Virus record (IMG/VR): IMGVR_UViG_2778261167_000005
Span: 1 to 29,475 of that record
Strand: one strand, 5' to 3'
Length of the DNA: 29,475 bases
From: a virus
Taxonomy: Duplodnaviria > Heunggongvirae > Uroviricota > Caudoviricetes
Position 1 is the stretch's first letter; each line of letters starts with the position of its first letter. A program made the position numbers and the translations under genes. The notes under the pieces are model-generated. The model was given only the letters and a program-made list of their open reading frames with translations, did no database searches and had not been told where the DNA came from. This document shows positions 2,876 to 13,943 of the stretch, piece by piece.

Positions 2876-3967
2876 TTAAGCCACGTATTCCGGTTTCATA
2901 TCCGCCAGGGTGATGCTGAACTGATCGTGCAGTTCGTCGCCCAGATGACGTTTCGCCGTTGCAAGAACTCGCTCAACTTCCCCAAACCGTTCAGCTGCAT
3001 CCGGTTCATCCGGAGACGGCAGGGAGTTTATCGCGGCTTCAACCTTGTTACGTGAATCAACCAGGTAGTAGCGCTTCACTGCCTTATTCTTCAGCTCGGT
3101 GAACAGGGCAGATCCGAGCGTGGCCTTCGCGCTTTCGATATCAGCGCGCAGTGCTTTGGCGCTATCAACATCCTGCGCAGCATCGATGCGTTCGCGGAAA
3201 TCATCGGCAAGAGCGTCGATATTTACCGACGATTCGTGTGCGCTTTGCGTAGTTGTGACGGTGTCACCTGCGATTTCAGCAACGCTCATTCGTTGGGCTG
3301 AGCCAGGGTTAATAACTTTTTCTTCTCGTTCTTCGACTTCATCGGCACTGTAAACACCGAGAATCACATCAGGGCAGTACAAGCGAGCCCAGCGCTTTAC
3401 CGCGAGATAAGCGAGCTGCTGACGCGGATCACTTGCCCATAGTGTCGAATTACGAACCTGAGCCTGAGAAAGCATGAGTACCAGTTCGCGTGGCTCATCC
3501 TCGCCTTTCATAGTTGCCCACACACGAACTCCTACACCGGCCTCATCCTTTAAATCCCAACCGGGCGCGATGTACTTATTGCCTTTAGAACTGGTTCTCT
3601 CTACAAATCGACCAATGATGTTTTCCCATGGACCAAACCAATCGTAATGAAGGCGATCTTTTGTAGGCGACATGTTGGTAACAACCGCATTAACCAGTTG
3701 AGCTTCGTAACCCAATACTCCGCTATTACCGACGATGTGGGTCTTCTGAGCTACGGCAAAGGGGTCCATACCCCATCGTGCGGCCTGCATGACCACAGCC
3801 ATGCAGGCATCTGGTTTTCCGCGGAAGTGGTCAGGTACAAAAGCGCCACTATTTGCCATCACTGTCGACAAGGTGCGTAGGCGGTCGAAAAGTTCCCCAT
3901 TAGTCAAAATTGAGATGTTATCGATCATTTGCGTCTTGTTTTCGTTGGTAGTAATTGCAGTAGACAT
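2876..3967 (-). CDS. recT: Phage single-strand annealing recombinase (RecT-like)
   Basis: 363-aa ORF directly downstream of the RecE-like exonuclease in the same operon; family assignment rests on synteny and general resemblance to RecT. Confidence 0.6.
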   Translation of the reverse strand: MSTAITTNENKTQMIDNISILTNGELFDRLRTLSTVMANSGAFVPDHFRGKPDACMAVVMQAARWGMDPFAVAQKTHIVGNSGVLGYEAQLVNAVVTNMSPTKDRLHYDWFGPWENIIGRFVERTSSKGNKYIAPGWDLKDEAGVGVRVWATMKGEDEPRELVLMLSQAQVRNSTLWASDPRQQLAYLAVKRWARLYCPDVILGVYSADEVEEREEKVINPGSAQRMSVAEIAGDTVTTTQSAHESSVNIDALADDFRERIDAAQDVDSAKALRADIESAKATLGSALFTELKNKAVKRYYLVDSRNKVEAAINSLPSPDEPDAAERFGEVERVLATAKRHLGDELHDQFSITLADMKPEYVA

Positions 3968-8099: not shown

Positions 8100-9020
8100 T
8101 TAAAAAGGTAAATCAATTTGCCTTTGTGGGTTGATTATTTTTTTTACCTTCACTATCTCATATGAGGTTTTTATACCTTTATCAGCAAGATACTGAGTGA
8201 TTTTTAGATCAACGAGCAAAAGGTCGCCTTTTGCAAAAGCAACTGATTGCTCATCAATCGCATTGAGGAATTTCTCATCACTGACCTCGGCTTGAAATGG
8301 GCTTGCACCATCTGAAAAATTCCATTTATGGCCTTCTCGAAATGAGATATCAAGAGGATGAAGTGCTCTTTCTGTAACGGACTCAGAAATAATAGTTTCT
8401 TCAGTGCTGTCTACTTTGAAAAAACATGCTTCACTCTTTGTAACTTCAACAAAAGTATGACCATCATCGATAGTGACTGCAAAACTATCGATCCCATCCC
8501 TCTCCAATGGTTTAGAGATTACATTCTCAAGAGCTCTGCGTATTTTTTTATTTTTATATAAATCTATGACTTGATTGTCAAAAACCTCACTTTCATCATC
8601 GATGAAAATTGTGGAGCTACCGTCAAATGTTGGCTCAATACGTTTAATTTTTTTTGGACCTAACCATTTTATTAGCTGAATCAGGCCCTTATATGACTGC
8701 TTAGTGGCTAAGTAGCCAAAACCTACCAAGCTTATGATATTGCAAGCAGCGGAAGCATTATTTCCAGAAAAAACACCTAGTATTTGACTTGTTATGGATG
8801 TTGACTGCGCTATGAGATCAATTCCAAAGGAACCCGCTTTAAATGAAGCGTTGACTTTAATTGATATACGCCTTTCTTTTCCATAGATAGTTTTTCCCGC
8901 CTCTTCTAAAGCATCGGATAGTGACAAAAGCGCCGGCGCAAGATCACGTACATCCATCTCGTGCGTGTCCAAAGCTGGGCCGTCGTAAACTATTCTGAAC
9001 TTCATATCGTCACTATCCAT
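8100..9020 (-). CDS. Uncharacterized 306-aa protein in a low-GC moron downstream of the repressor (rex/sieB-equivalent position)
   Basis: Long ORF with ATG at 9020; distinctly AT-rich compared with flanking phage genes; co-oriented with the repressor; own terminator; no motif I recognise. Confidence 0.6.
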   Translation of the reverse strand: MDSDDMKFRIVYDGPALDTHEMDVRDLAPALLSLSDALEEAGKTIYGKERRISIKVNASFKAGSFGIDLIAQSTSITSQILGVFSGNNASAACNIISLVGFGYLATKQSYKGLIQLIKWLGPKKIKRIEPTFDGSSTIFIDDESEVFDNQVIDLYKNKKIRRALENVISKPLERDGIDSFAVTIDDGHTFVEVTKSEACFFKVDSTEETIISESVTERALHPLDISFREGHKWNFSDGASPFQAEVSDEKFLNAIDEQSVAFAKGDLLLVDLKITQYLADKGIKTSYEIVKVKKIINPQRQIDLPF

Positions 9021-9135
9021 CAATGCCTATCCTGTGCATGATTATAAACCTGATCGTATATACAGTACATTTAATAAGTCATTACTTAGATGTTCTCTTA
9101 CCCACTGCTACTCTCTATGCACTGACCAGAGGTCT

Positions 9136-9519
9136 TCAATCCCCCTGCGATCTGATCCGCCCCTTCATGTACTTCTCATACAACTCATCCAACTCTTTCA
9201 GGCGAATGGCAAAGATGCGGAGCATGTTCTGTTGCTCTTCTTCCGGTAGTTGGCGGTAGAGCTCCAGCAGACGCTGTTCGTCCGGCTTGAGGCCGTCTTT
9301 CTCATCGACATCCTCACCGAGTAACCAAGGTACCGAAACGCCAGCTGCATCAGCGATGGCCAGTGCAGATTGTTTGCTAATCCTTCCTGTTTTGAACCAG
9401 CTGGATACAGCTTGCTTACTGACACCAGCAATCTTGGCCATCTCCGTTTTGGAGAAGCCTTTATTGTTCAGTTCTGTGAGTCTCGAAATAAGACCGTCTG
9501 TCAATGTGTTTTCACTCAT
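9136..9519 (-). CDS. Prophage repressor, HTH XRE-family (RacR/CI-like, no peptidase domain)
   Basis: 127 aa from ATG 9519; HTH segment KTEMAKIAGVSKQAVSSWFK; divergent from the Cro-like gene; operators in the 97-bp intergenic region. Confidence 0.75.
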   Translation of the reverse strand: MSENTLTDGLISRLTELNNKGFSKTEMAKIAGVSKQAVSSWFKTGRISKQSALAIADAAGVSVPWLLGEDVDEKDGLKPDEQRLLELYRQLPEEEQQNMLRIFAIRLKELDELYEKYMKGRIRSQGD

Positions 9520-9616
9520 CTCATGATTGTAAATGATTGCTTTACTCTCTGATAGGGATGTATTGTTTGACACGTCAGTAAAACAATGCTTTACTTCCTT
9601 CATCTAAGGAGGTCCC
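9520..9616. promoter_or_regulatory. Immunity switch region: PR promoter plus two operators (O1 9577..9595, O2 9528..9546) and a candidate PRM
   Basis: PR: TTGACA 9567..9572, 17-bp spacer, TTTACT 9590..9595, AGGAGG RBS 9607..9612. O1 AGTAAAacaatgcTTTACT; O2 TGTAAAtgattgcTTTACT. Minus-strand TACAAT lies immediately before the repressor ATG. Confidence 0.65.
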
Positions 9617-9826
9617 ATGACTGGTATTGAAAATGCAATTCTCCGATCTGGCTCGGCCAGCGCGCTTGGCGCTTTGATCGGCGTTTCAAAAATGGCTGTT
9701 TCGCTGTGGCGCCGTAAAGGAATTCCTGCCGAACGAGTGCTACCAGTGTTTGAGGCAACCGGCGTAACGCCCCACGAACTGCGCCCAGATCTCTACCCAA
9801 ATCCCACTGACGGTTTACCAAAGTAG
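9617..9826 (+). CDS. Cro-like HTH regulator (YdaS-like)
   Basis: 69 aa, strong AAGGAGG RBS; HTH LGALIGVSKMAVSLWRRKG; first gene of the rightward operon, divergent from the repressor. Confidence 0.7.
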   Translation: MTGIENAILRSGSASALGALIGVSKMAVSLWRRKGIPAERVLPVFEATGVTPHELRPDLYPNPTDGLPK

Positions 9827-9837
9827 GAGCACTAACC

Positions 9838-10377
9838 ATGCAGACACTTACTTATCAGAATGATAGCGACATTACTCAAGGGGTAATGATAAATCGCGCT
9901 CAAGCGCGCAGGGGGCCGAGCCATGAAGATATTCGTGACGCGGTTCGCTCCTGGGCTGGCGCCGATGGCCAGGACGTAGTCACGGCTCTGATCATCGAAG
10001 AGTACCTGGCGCAAGGAGGTGATGAGATCACTTTTCCTGATGATCTCTGCCGAAAACGCCAGAAGCTGTTCCGCTTTCTGGACAACCACTTCAACAGTGA
10101 ACGGTACCGCGAGAACGTTCGCCAGCTGACTCCGGCAATCCTCGCAGTTCTGCCGATTGAATACCGCAACCGTCTGCTGCCAGAAGACAACATCATGGCT
10201 CGCCTGGCACGTATGGAGAAGGAAACCAGCGAAGCGAAGATAGCTGTCGCAATGGATGCGCCGCGTCATCAGAAGCTGAAAGAGCTGAGTGAAGGGATCG
10301 TGGAGATGTACCGCGTTGACCCTGGCTTAACCGGGCCGCTGATGGAAATGGTGCAGATGATGCTGGGGGTTGTATGA
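9838..10377 (+). CDS. YdaT-like protein (Rac YdaT family)
   Basis: 179 aa; conserved-looking segments EEYLAQGGDE and LTPAILAVLP recall E. coli YdaT; sits immediately after the Cro/YdaS-like gene as in Rac. Confidence 0.55.
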   Translation: MQTLTYQNDSDITQGVMINRAQARRGPSHEDIRDAVRSWAGADGQDVVTALIIEEYLAQGGDEITFPDDLCRKRQKLFRFLDNHFNSERYRENVRQLTPAILAVLPIEYRNRLLPEDNIMARLARMEKETSEAKIAVAMDAPRHQKLKELSEGIVEMYRVDPGLTGPLMEMVQMMLGVV

Positions 10378-10541
10378 CGGGTTCAAAAATGGCGAAAGCC
10401 GTGGTGCTCGAACACCAACGGCCTTCAGGTGCAAATGTAGAGACAAATGCAAAATCAGTATGCCCACACAATCATATTTTTACCAGTGGAAGTTCTGTTC
10501 ACTGGAACGATCTCATCGCTTTCATTTATCAGGAGGACGCA

Positions 10542-11381
10542 ATGGCCGGTGACTGGATAAAAATGCGCGCCGAGCTGCATACGCATCCGAAAATTGTCCG
10601 CATGTCGTCCGCTTTGAAAGCGGACAGATTGCGCGTTGTTGGTGGACTACATTCCGCATGGTGTCTTTTTGATGTCCATTCTACCGATGGTTTTCTTCAC
10701 GGATACACACCGGAAACTCTCGACGATTTAATCGGCTTCCCTGGCTTTGCGCGAGCAATGATTGCTGTCGGATGGCTGGAAGAAGAGGGTGAAAACCTAG
10801 TAATGCCGCGGTTTGATGTGCACAACGGACAGTCCGCCAAGCGTCGAGCACAGGATGCAGACAGGAAGAAAAAATCCCGCAAAATGTCCGCTTGTGATGC
10901 GGACAAAAAGGGGACCAGAGAAGAGAAGAGAAGAGAAGATATAAAAGATCAAAACCCAGAGAGAGAACGCGCGGGAGAAAACTCTTCCGTGGAAGTCATT
11001 TCTGGCAATGGAACTTCATCACCAACCATTCAACATCAACCGGCCGCTGAAGATTTCGGTGCTGGATGCGCGTTCGGTCCACTTGGCAAATTTCCAATCA
11101 CTGACTCCTGGGCTCCATCTCCTGATTTCGTTCGTCAGGCTGCACTCTGGGGAAAAAACGTCGGTGCAGAACCGGGTTACACCGCTGAAGAACTCCAGCA
11201 GTTCCGTGATTACTGGATCCCTGATGGCAAAGTTAAACACCAGTTGGCCTGGGAACAGACGTTTGCTGACAGCCTGTTGCAATCGCGTAGTCGAATCAAA
11301 AGGGCAAACTCTGCGGGATCGCGAGATGTGAACCGCATTTCTGAGCCAGATAAAACCATCCCAACCGGATTCAGGGGGTAA
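10542..11381 (+). CDS. Phage replication initiation protein (replisome organizer N-terminus, DnaT-like C-terminal domain)
   Basis: ATG 10542 with AGGAGG RBS; alternative upstream start 10374 overlaps the ydaT-like stop (ATGA). C-terminal ...FRDYWIPDGKVKHQLAWEQTFADSLL... is DnaT-like; internal palindromic repeats. Confidence 0.6.
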   Translation: MAGDWIKMRAELHTHPKIVRMSSALKADRLRVVGGLHSAWCLFDVHSTDGFLHGYTPETLDDLIGFPGFARAMIAVGWLEEEGENLVMPRFDVHNGQSAKRRAQDADRKKKSRKMSACDADKKGTREEKRREDIKDQNPERERAGENSSVEVISGNGTSSPTIQHQPAAEDFGAGCAFGPLGKFPITDSWAPSPDFVRQAALWGKNVGAEPGYTAEELQQFRDYWIPDGKVKHQLAWEQTFADSLLQSRSRIKRANSAGSRDVNRISEPDKTIPTGFRG

Positions 11382-11383
11382 GC

Positions 11384-11722
11384 ATGCCAAGACCAAATAC
11401 ACCAGAAGAGCAGGCGGCACTTATCCGGGTGATCATCGAAGAGGTGAAAATCCGTGGACGCTTAACCGTTAGCGAAGCATCACAGATGTTGTCGCTGCAT
11501 CGTCAGACTGCTGAGAAGTATTTCCGCGTAGCAGCCGAACGCGGCGAACTCATTCGTCACGGTCGTCTTGGATTGTTCAGGGACCGGAAGGCTGTGATTG
11601 ATTTTGATCTTCAGCGTTTTTCATACAGCTCGAGTAAGTCTGCGATTGAATTACCAGCCGATTTTCGGGGAAGCGCGGTTATGCGCCGGGTTATAGATAT
11701 CTTAGGGAGAATGCCAGCATGA
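11384..11722 (+). CDS. Hypothetical protein with predicted HTH
   Basis: 112 aa, AGGGGG RBS; segment LTVSEASQMLSLHRQTAEKYF is HTH-like. Confidence 0.5.
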   Translation: MPRPNTPEEQAALIRVIIEEVKIRGRLTVSEASQMLSLHRQTAEKYFRVAAERGELIRHGRLGLFRDRKAVIDFDLQRFSYSSSKSAIELPADFRGSAVMRRVIDILGRMPA

Positions 11723-12120
11723 AACCAACATACGAACAACTTGAACAGCAGGTGCTCGAACTGTCAGTACAGCTCGCTAACTCCGAGAGCAAGTGCAGGG
11801 AGCTGGCCGGGGTAGTTGCTGATAACACTGATTTAAAATCGCTGATTGAACAACATGCAGGCTCTATCGCTGTATGTCCTAACTGCTCACACGAAGAGCC
11901 AAGCGAAACTGACGATATCGTTGCGTTATATCGCTCACTGAAAACCCCAGCCACCGACGCTTTCCTGGCTGAAGTGCGGGTGCAGGGCGTGGAGATGTTT
12001 GCTGACTTCTGCGGTGAAGAAAACTCTGTATTCGTCGAGGCCAAGGCTTACTACCGTTCACTTGCGGATGCAGTTGAAGAGTTTGCCGCACAGCTACGCC
12101 AAGGAGCCGCGCATGAGTAA
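11719..12120 (+). CDS. Hypothetical phage protein with N-terminal coiled coil
   Basis: 133 aa, GGGAGA RBS, overlapping stop/start with neighbours. Confidence 0.5.
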   Translation: MKPTYEQLEQQVLELSVQLANSESKCRELAGVVADNTDLKSLIEQHAGSIAVCPNCSHEEPSETDDIVALYRSLKTPATDAFLAEVRVQGVEMFADFCGEENSVFVEAKAYYRSLADAVEEFAAQLRQGAAHE

Positions 12121-12589
12121 CGCAGCGACTGTTTTGGATGTGTGCTGCGGCTCCCGCATGTTCTGGTTCAACAAGCAGGACACCCGCGCCGTGTTCGCTG
12201 ATATCCGAGCCGAAGAGCACGAGCTGTGCGATGGTCGCCGCCTGGTTATCAGTCCCGACCTGATTTCCGACTTCCGTGCGTTGCCATTCGCCGACGCATC
12301 GTTTCCGGTTGTGGTGTTTGATCCACCACACCTTGAACGTGTCGGCCAAACAGCCTGGATGGGTAAAAAATACGGGCGACTGAACAAAAAAACGTGGCGT
12401 TCGGACCTGCGAGCCGGATTCAAAGAAGCTTTTCGCGTGTTGTGGCCACATGGTGTGCTCATCTTCAAATGGAACGAAACACAAATACCGGTTAGCCAGA
12501 TTCTGGCGCTTACAGACGTGAAACCGGCAATTGGCCAGCGAACTGGGAAGAACGACAAAACCCACTGGATTATCTTTGTGAAGGACTAA
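12113..12589 (+). CDS. Small class-I SAM-dependent methyltransferase (motif I LDVCCGS, motif IV DPPH); putative nucleic-acid amino-methyltransferase
   Basis: 158 aa; glycine-rich SAM motif near the N-terminus and VVFDPPH; AAGGAG RBS; start overlaps the upstream stop (ATGAGTAA). Confidence 0.6.
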   Translation: MSNAATVLDVCCGSRMFWFNKQDTRAVFADIRAEEHELCDGRRLVISPDLISDFRALPFADASFPVVVFDPPHLERVGQTAWMGKKYGRLNKKTWRSDLRAGFKEAFRVLWPHGVLIFKWNETQIPVSQILALTDVKPAIGQRTGKNDKTHWIIFVKD

Positions 12590-13381: not shown

Positions 13382-13685
13382 ATGTGGACACCGAAAGAGA
13401 GCGAGCAAAGGATTATAAACGTAGTGATGGGGTGATTAAAACGCGTTGAACTGGCTGTTTTGAAATGGACTTTTAAACTTTGACTAAGGTCATTAAATCA
13501 TCGCGATTTGAAGTTTAAGCGAAAATAGTTGATGAGGGGTATTGACCTTTAGTGCTCGCCGGTGACAAGCCAACTCAGGAAGAGATTAATGATGCTGTAA
13601 GGGACGCGCGAATTACCCATCCGTGGAAATTCGCCTGGCATTGATTGATGTATAATCCCTCTCAATGTATCGAGGGGGATTATAC

Positions 13686-13943
13686 ATGTCGGACTGGAAC
13701 ATCGCAGCAAAATCGAAAGAAGAGCAGGACAAGGTTAACGTCGACCTTGCTGCCTCCGGAGTTGCGTACAAAGAGCGTCTGAACATGCCAGTTATCGCCG
13801 AGCAGGTATCCCGTGAGCAGCCAGAGCACTTACGCGAATACTTCATGGAGCGCGTTCGCTACTACCGCGAGCAAAGCCTGACGCTTCCAAAAGCATCCGA
13901 TCCGCGCTATCTGGATATGGCAGCCCAGAACGAGAAGAAGTAA
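13686..13943 (+). CDS. Small hypothetical protein (possibly the cold-shock-induced YnaE/YdfK family of Rac/Qin; uncertain)
   Basis: 85 aa, ATG 13686 with GAGGGGG RBS; preceded by a palindrome overlapping a TATAAT box. Confidence 0.45.

Follow-up and report, generated by a model that had tools for sequence, protein, structure and literature searches.

A probable lambda-type replication origin within the initiator gene of a Rac-like prophage

Does the replication initiator gene of this prophage also house the origin from which the prophage replicates? The question is raised by short inverted repeats and a purine-rich tract lying inside the gene, in a 29,475-nucleotide stretch of Caudoviricetes DNA that was analysed as a whole and is called the window below. 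The gene order places the region in the early-right operon of a lambdoid or Rac-like prophage, comprising the following genes.

9136-9603, minus strand: gene of a CI/RacR-like repressor
9617-9826: YdaS/Cro-like gene
9838-10377: YdaT-like gene
10542..11381, plus strand: replication initiator gene, 279 codons plus stop, identified by a PHROG 2509 match, the MAGDWIK start and public gene calls
11384-11722: DUF977 DNA-binding gene

The initiator gene starts at ATG 10542, preceded by AGGAGG at 10532. A start at 10374, the mechanical limit of the open reading frame, was rejected, as all homologues open with MAGDWIK and the public calls give a protein of 279 residues; the same product is called on at least 24 public contigs. 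The protein belongs to PHROG 2509 (epsilon15-type, annotated as 'replication initiation protein'), which it matches over the full length of the profile (E 2e-100, residues 1-279 on profile positions 1-277 of 277). The gene was not found in complete E. coli genomes, and a plasmid database gave two weak matches and none other, which provide no independent evidence of a replicon.

Two domains are distinguished in the initiator, encoded as follows.

10542..10830, plus strand: predicted N-terminal winged-helix domain (ca. residues 1-95), the presumed origin-binding domain
11091..11294, plus strand: C-terminal DnaT-like single-stranded-DNA-binding domain (residues 184-251), Pfam PF17948

No Pfam or NCBIfam model matched the N-terminal 130 residues. 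According to an AlphaFold2 model of residues 1-135, the fold of the N-domain is a winged helix (pLDDT 85-95 over residues 11-90), followed by a long helix of low confidence, which covers the linker encoded by the repeat cluster closer to the purine tract. Residues 184-251 are a member of PF17948 (E 3.9e-13, 49.3 bits at a cut-off of 25). The initiator also matches positions 83-179 of the NCBIfam DnaT model PRK02854 (E 1.3e-25), but with 90 bits against a whole-protein cut-off of 201, and hence it is not DnaT itself. Presumably it is through the DnaT-like domain that the initiator connects with the primosome or helicase of the host. The initiator family is large, with 7,793 representatives at 50% identity for E up to 0.001 and 4,746 for E up to 1e-10. 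A C-terminal tail, ..PDxxIPxGFRG-stop, is common to the window protein (11340-11378), the Rac-type ydaU of MN652886 (L167:1957-2013) and K-12 YdaU (L168:4921-4974), although the N-domains are unrelated, that of K-12 YdaU being DUF1376; the tail may be where a partner common to these proteins docks.

The elements within the initiator gene are arranged in two clusters of hexamers, the second of which is followed by the tract.

10596..10647: distal iteron cluster, with GTCCGC at 10596 and 10607 forward, GCGGAC at 10620 inverted and a degenerate GTGGAC at 10642-10647; includes the palindrome at 10607-10625
10875..10915: proximal iteron cluster, with a degenerate TCCCGC at 10875-10880, GTCCGC at 10886 forward, GCGGAC at 10899 inverted and a degenerate GGGGAC at 10910-10915, spaced by 11-13-11 bp
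10916..10939, plus (sense) strand: homopurine pentamer tract, C + (AGAGA)4AGA, delimited by TRF and family conservation
10940..10960: AT-rich continuation of 29% GC, together with the tract the presumed unwinding region

Exact GTCCGC copies lie at 10596-10601, 10607-10612, 10832-10837 and 10886-10891 on the plus strand, and at 10620-10625 and 10899-10904 on the minus strand. Six of the eight copies of the window are in this way gathered in 309 bp (10596-10904), while dinucleotide shuffles give an expectation of 15.7 per 29.5 kb, i.e., ca. 0.16 per 309 bp (Poisson P = 2e-8). Both clusters that the original prediction, made from the sequence alone, had noticed in the replication gene are confirmed by these counts, and its two palindromes are present: the perfect 19-bp palindrome GTCCGCTTT-G-AAAGCGGAC at 10607-10625, one of three perfect inverted repeats with arms of at least 9 in the window (shuffle mean 1.2), and GTCCGC-N7-GCGGAC at 10886-10904. 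The proximal cluster and the tract occupy codons 112-140, between the winged helix (residues 11-90) and the DnaT-like domain (residues 184-251), and the last half-site of the cluster ends one base ahead of the tract.

The copy at 10832 sits in a small perfect palindrome, CGGACAGTCCG, at 10826-10836 (CGGAC-A-GTCCG). It was rejected as a part of the system, with a synonymous observed/expected ratio of 1.75 at Ser98 and no conservation in homologues, and is probably due to chance. Outside the origin region there are two GTCCGC copies in 29 kb versus ca. 15.5 expected. In the flanks of about 90 related loci, a search for avoidance of the iteron elsewhere in the phage genomes found a mild GTCCGC depletion, which is the same in foreign iteron classes (0.69 vs 0.72); being independent of the iteron class, it is no evidence of iteron avoidance.

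The purine tract announced by the original prediction is present after the clusters, though its unit is AGAGA and not the heptamer AGAGAAG: TRF finds (AGAGA)4.6 at 10917-10939 with a period of 5 and a 100% match. It is the longest homopurine run of the window (23 nt, the next longest being 16). The segment 10917-10960 is 84% purine and has 34% GC, as opposed to 50.8% in the window, in keeping with the predicted AT-rich stretch; its nearest-neighbour stability falls among the lowest 0.5-1.7% of the window, and the minimum of the window lies elsewhere. The same is seen in the homologues, in which the tract together with the next ca. 20 bp is 17-31 GC points under the mean of its own locus (n=98). 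The tract alone is only 61% A+T, and it is conserved more exactly than a simple unwinding element would require.

The comparison comprised 160 loci encoding the N-domain, drawn from one-genome-per-species contigs and IMG/VR. Their hosts include Enterobacterales, Pseudomonas, Burkholderiales and Xanthomonadales, as well as Planctomycetota and Verrucomicrobiota known from MAGs; a homologue from Kluyvera georgiana has 98% amino-acid identity. From its ATG to slightly beyond the tract, a length of ca. 420-470 bp, the gene has a DNA identity of 83-87% with epsilon15 and SPN1S, 81% with a Klebsiella phage, 75% with Ralstonia phage RPZH6 and 71% with Pseudomonas phage phiPSA1. When seven sequences are aligned, no change is seen in the hexamer clusters or in CCAGAGAAGAGAAGAGAAGAGAAGA, whereas the surrounding third codon positions vary. 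The family consensus has two clusters, each of forward and then inverted hexamers with 11-bp phasing, and most members of the GTCCGC class share one layout counted from the ATG: +54 and +65 forward, +78 and +100 inverted, then +333 and +344 forward, +357 and +368 inverted, and the tract at +375. Relative to the tract start, the hexamer is found at -42 in 68%, at -31 in 96%, at -18 in 92% and at -7 in 92% of this class (n=92). The window keeps +54, +65, +78, +344 and +357, and is degenerate at +100, +333 and +368, three outer half-sites whose degeneracy means that the window origin may be weakened, to an uncertain degree.

Synonymous change was followed in a codon alignment of 104 homologues of <90% nucleotide identity, as the ratio of the observed synonymous differences to those expected from pairwise synonymous divergence. 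This ratio is 1.0-1.8 in the gene background and drops to 0.01-0.38 in the codons of the distal hexamers (19-28), returning to ca. 0.8 in the spacer codons 24-25; it is 0.05-0.24 in codons 116-124 of the proximal cluster and 0.00-0.14 in the tract codons AGA GAA GAG AAG AGA AGA GAA. The AGA arginine codons of the tract are retained even in hosts of 65% GC, in which AGA is rare. Among the matches listed, the tract is read by the ORF spanning it in frame 0 (79 loci), frame 1 (29) or frame 2 (one). The sites are under strong DNA-level selection. The exact coincidence of suppressed synonymous change with the hexamers and the tract, along with the retention of the tract in three frames, indicates a DNA-level site and not a coding constraint, as had been argued from the palindromic symmetry. 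That the repeats arose by chance and are held by constraint on the encoded peptide ...SAxDADKK..REEKRRE has next to no probability; the REEKRRE peptide is indeed conserved, but the frozen synonymous sites, AGA arginine at 65% GC, the use of three frames and the enrichment (P = 2e-8) exclude this explanation.

The word of the repeats is not the same throughout the family. Divergent members (37-50% protein identity) have no GTCCGC, and carry another word in several copies at the same place upstream of the tract, for example:

L078, L082 and L085: GTCACG/CGTGAC
L086: GTAGAC three times, then GTCTAC twice
L080: GTAAC/GTTAC
L084: GTCCC/GGGAC
L079: four direct copies of CGGACA

Further words in relatives are GTAACG, GTCCGAC, 11-mers and others. 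In 111 distinct loci among the matches listed in an IMG/VR scan that used the tract only, words particular to the lineage stand in the 75 bp upstream, in 3-6 copies spaced by ca. 11 bp, and the last half-site ends in '..AC', followed by C and then by the tract ('..AC C AGAGAAG'). The 5-mer of the last half-site recurs at least three times within 70 bp upstream in 129 of 182 distinct loci, while a control window downstream has zero copies of the locus's own word in 155 of the 182. The distal cluster, too, is general and made of the own word; relative to the tract it lies at -340 to -280 where that word is GTCCGC, and at -270 to -210 in the GTAAC and GTCAC classes. The original prediction had named absence or free variation of the repeats in homologues as what would speak against it; the opposite was found, with the repeats held in position and phasing and their words changing jointly. 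Such a concerted change, with the position and phasing kept, is what one expects of sites that are recognised by a protein particular to each lineage. The N-domain in which the repeats are embedded is the sole component always accompanying them: the two travel together, and flanking genes vary by locus. Mutual information between the iteron class and protein columns revealed no recognition residues, the top columns being iteron-encoded or phylogeny-driven. In a distant family member, L075 (positions 3001-3400, a Pirellulales MAG), four tandem 24-bp repeats AAGAGCGTACCGGAGGTCCAACGC, encoding KSVPEVQR x4, replace the short iterons, and the pentamer tract is missing.

The same comparison bears on the possibility that the conserved element acts as RNA, the palindromes forming hairpins in the initiator mRNA and controlling, with the purine tract, its translation, pausing or stability. 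Both clusters fold as hairpins better than shuffled sequences do (z -2.8 to -5.9), and in all of the matches listed the sense strand carries the tract, the purine strand being the transcript strand. However, there are lineages with direct repeats only (L079, L204/L272 and the L232-type), and pairing is therefore not the conserved property; the 11-bp phasing and the additional outer half-sites fit a protein on duplex DNA, and no Rfam 15 covariance model matched within 10300-11500 at E up to 1. An RNA-level role is, in our opinion, highly improbable.

The tract, in turn, is invariant regardless of the iteron word, the reading frame or the host GC. It is present in 100 of the 104 non-redundant homologues, being exactly 23 nt long in 58, and its information content in the 100 tract-bearing homologues is 2.0 bits per position, compared with ca. 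0.3 bits directly after it. At least 120 IMG/VR contigs contain it, each of those listed having iteron-like repeats upstream, and it is kept in hosts of 45-67% GC. Among the matches listed, 101 of the 109 tract-spanning ORFs belong to the initiator family of the window; one full-length exception, L273, joins the tract to a DUF1376 N-domain like that of K-12 Rac YdaU.

In an alignment with the epsilon15, SPN1S, Klebsiella, Ralstonia and Pseudomonas phages (L001-L006), DNA homology of the window (10539-10960) starts at the ATG and stops a few bases past the tract. The C-terminal domains vary, also between close relatives in the N-domain, and so do the neighbouring genes; the tract hence coincides with a module junction. 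One could suppose on these grounds that the tract is a recombination joint for swapping the N- and C-terminal modules of initiators, conserved through repeated exchange and without a role in initiation. Exchange does not explain a base-perfect tract beside at least eight iteron specificities, in proteins down to ca. 42% identity, nor does it explain the fixed one-base gap to the last half-site and the low-GC stretch that follows. It is more plausible that the joint results from a conserved functional 23-mer than that it gave rise to it, and we consider the recombination explanation very unlikely.

Judging from the comparative sequence data, the region is very likely a prophage replication origin of lambda design, situated inside its own initiator gene and serving a large, uncharacterised initiator family. 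Dimers or oligomers of the winged-helix N-domain would bind the GTCCGC/GCGGAC half-sites, about one helical turn apart, occupying the proximal cluster (10875-10915) and the distal one (10596-10647), which lies ca. 280 bp upstream. The complex of protein and DNA so formed, in which the DNA between the clusters may be looped, would strain the DNA beside the last half-site, so that the C-(AGAGA)4.6 tract and the following 20 AT-rich base pairs (10916-10960) open, and the DnaT-like C-domain would then recruit the host helicase-loading machinery. Binding of the N-domain to these sites, opening at the tract and the start of replication here are inferred steps. No DnaA box was found within 6 kb. In the limited set of literature searched, which extended to the origin of epsilon15 or SPN1S and to DnaT-type phage initiators, no paper was found that describes this origin or the tract, or that reports binding, opening or replication for any family member.

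In iteron plasmids and P1, additional iteron clusters serve control. With this precedent, the repeats might be sites at which the initiator, or another phage DNA-binding protein, exerts autoregulation or copy control by roadblock or handcuffing, the true origin being elsewhere. The distal cluster, 210-330 bp from the tract and without a counterpart in lambda, could serve such a purpose, and for this cluster a control role is possible. As an account of the whole region this is nevertheless unlikely: no sigma-70-type promoter-like site was found in 9000-12200, the conserved element that always adjoins the proximal cluster, low in GC and rich in purines, is what one expects at an origin rather than at an operator, the neighbouring regulators vary among loci while the repeats follow the N-domain, and no other candidate combining iterons with AT-rich DNA was seen in the window.

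A known counterpart of the proposed origin is that of lambda, which comprises four dyad-symmetric iterons of 18-19 bp inside gene O, followed by CACAAAAGACACTATTACAAAAGAAAAAAGAAAAGA, an AT-rich sequence with many purines on the sense strand (PMC5043065). The region studied here has the elements of this design: it lies between the parts coding for the DNA-binding and the partner-binding domains, and it contains several dyad-symmetric repeats, the putative initiator sites, and an A+T-rich, strand-asymmetric region of ca. 40 bp. As in lambda, the proposed origin is within the initiator gene, in the part coding for the inter-domain segment, the repeats are dyad-symmetric (19 bp in lambda and 6-N7-6, i.e., 19 bp, here), and the last repeat is directly followed by ca. 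40 bp of AT-rich DNA with purines prevailing on the sense strand. The likeness to the lambda origin put forward in the original prediction is borne out by this layout, with repeats in the linker-coding part and the low-GC, purine-rich segment behind them. The initiator itself, however, is no homologue of O (hhalign probability 0.14, no Pfam O-type domain), and for this reason the window origin may be said to work like oriLambda without being a member of the O/ori-lambda lineage. The two differ also in that lambda has four tandem 19-mers, whereas here there are hexamer half-sites with 11-bp phasing in a forward-forward-inverted-inverted order, with a second cluster ca. 280 bp upstream; an exact pentamer repeat kept across the family takes the place of the loosely AT-rich stretch of lambda; and the C-terminal domain is DnaT-like, with no P gene.

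The Rac region (oriJ; racR-ydaS-ydaT-ydaU-ydaV) shows the same order of repressor, YdaS-like, YdaT-like and initiator genes, and shares the C-terminal tail ..IPxGFRG with the window initiator. The Rac-type ydaU of MN652886 (L167) encodes the N-domain of the window, with 29% identity over the full protein and 34% over residues 1-96; it follows the same design with GTAACGC iterons, the last part reading GCGTTAC-C-AGAGGAAGAGGAAGAGGAAGATATAAATAC, and the related purine tract AGAGGAAGAGGAAGAGGAAGA. Rac of K-12 differs in having a YdaU with a DUF1376 N-domain and no (AGAGA)n tract, and the window in turn has no DnaC-like ydaV. In the linker of K-12 ydaU (L168:4480-4640) there are TGTTCAAACA repeats, two direct and one inverted, and behind them a stretch rich in A+T and in purines. 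By its sequence this linker looks like the same origin design in the gene of a DUF1376-type initiator, and it is proposed as a candidate position of oriJ. A passage of PMC3945230 reports oriJ of Rac as an active origin; no text placing oriJ inside ydaU was found in the literature searched.

Plasmid iteron origins served by winged-helix Rep proteins (RepA/RepE/pi; RepA_N) have direct repeats of 17-22 bp that are intergenic and usually accompanied by DnaA boxes, whereas the hexamer half-sites described here are intragenic and have no DnaA box; in its repeats and their setting the region does not fit that class. A passage of PMC5043065 citing Richardson 2016 describes the DnaA-trios of bacterial oriC, a short one-strand tandem repeat beside the last initiator box, followed by AT-rich DNA. 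Their likeness to the tract is an analogy of layout, the period being 5 here versus 3 there, and no DnaA being involved here. The tract is a perfect homopurine mirror repeat, in which it resembles H-DNA, and its (AGAGA)n unit is the pentamer of the Drosophila AAGAG satellite, which a part of PMC6316130 links to triplex DNA. With the purine-rich R-loop primers (ColE1 RNA II and the retroviral polypurine tract) it has in common that its purine strand is the transcript strand. By analogy, the resemblance to H-DNA and R-loop primers offers a lead.

The lambda-like design is known in kind, and the base-perfect (AGAGA)n tract is the part going beyond the known kind. That it stands beside iterons of many specificities, is read in three frames, accompanies N-domains of two families and occurs over a wide range of host GC argues for a sequence-specific firing step. 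We tentatively suggest, at somewhat less than even chance, that C-(AGAGA)4-5 is a sequence-specific origin-firing element independent of the initiator's specificity and shared by thousands of temperate-phage lineages in Proteobacteria and beyond. It would then be more than a DNA segment that merely melts easily, and could possibly act as a single-stranded landing pad for an oligomerising initiator (in this a phage counterpart of DnaA-trios), as a purine-rich transcript segment giving a stable R-loop or primer, or as an H-DNA switch.

The initiator family is a very large one, whose origin-binding domain has no Pfam model and for which no described origin was found in the literature searched. 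For epsilon15-like phages and many phages of Pseudomonas, Ralstonia and Xanthomonas, the comparative data provide a map of the binding word, its phasing, the two clusters and the opening element. An invariant tract beside freely changing iterons separates recognition by the initiator from firing of the origin, and the old question of how iteron origins open can thereby be put to a direct test. The tract can, moreover, serve as a handy marker when phage origins of this class are sought in genomic and metagenomic sequence.

Two other features of the window deserve a mention. Downstream of the replication module, a small ORF at 13665-13943 is a phage-borne HolE/Hot-like gene: the precomputed gene table that accompanies an identical public contig lists its product with a match to the theta subunit of DNA polymerase III (PF06440). 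At the far end, a perfect 9-bp tandem repeat, GCAGAGCAG, present in 20.3 copies at 29293-29475, runs off the window; the GCAGAGCAG array encodes (Ala-Glu-Gln)n in an ORF starting at ATG 29104, directly after a capsid-like gene (28016-29071) and the terminator-like hairpin of that gene.
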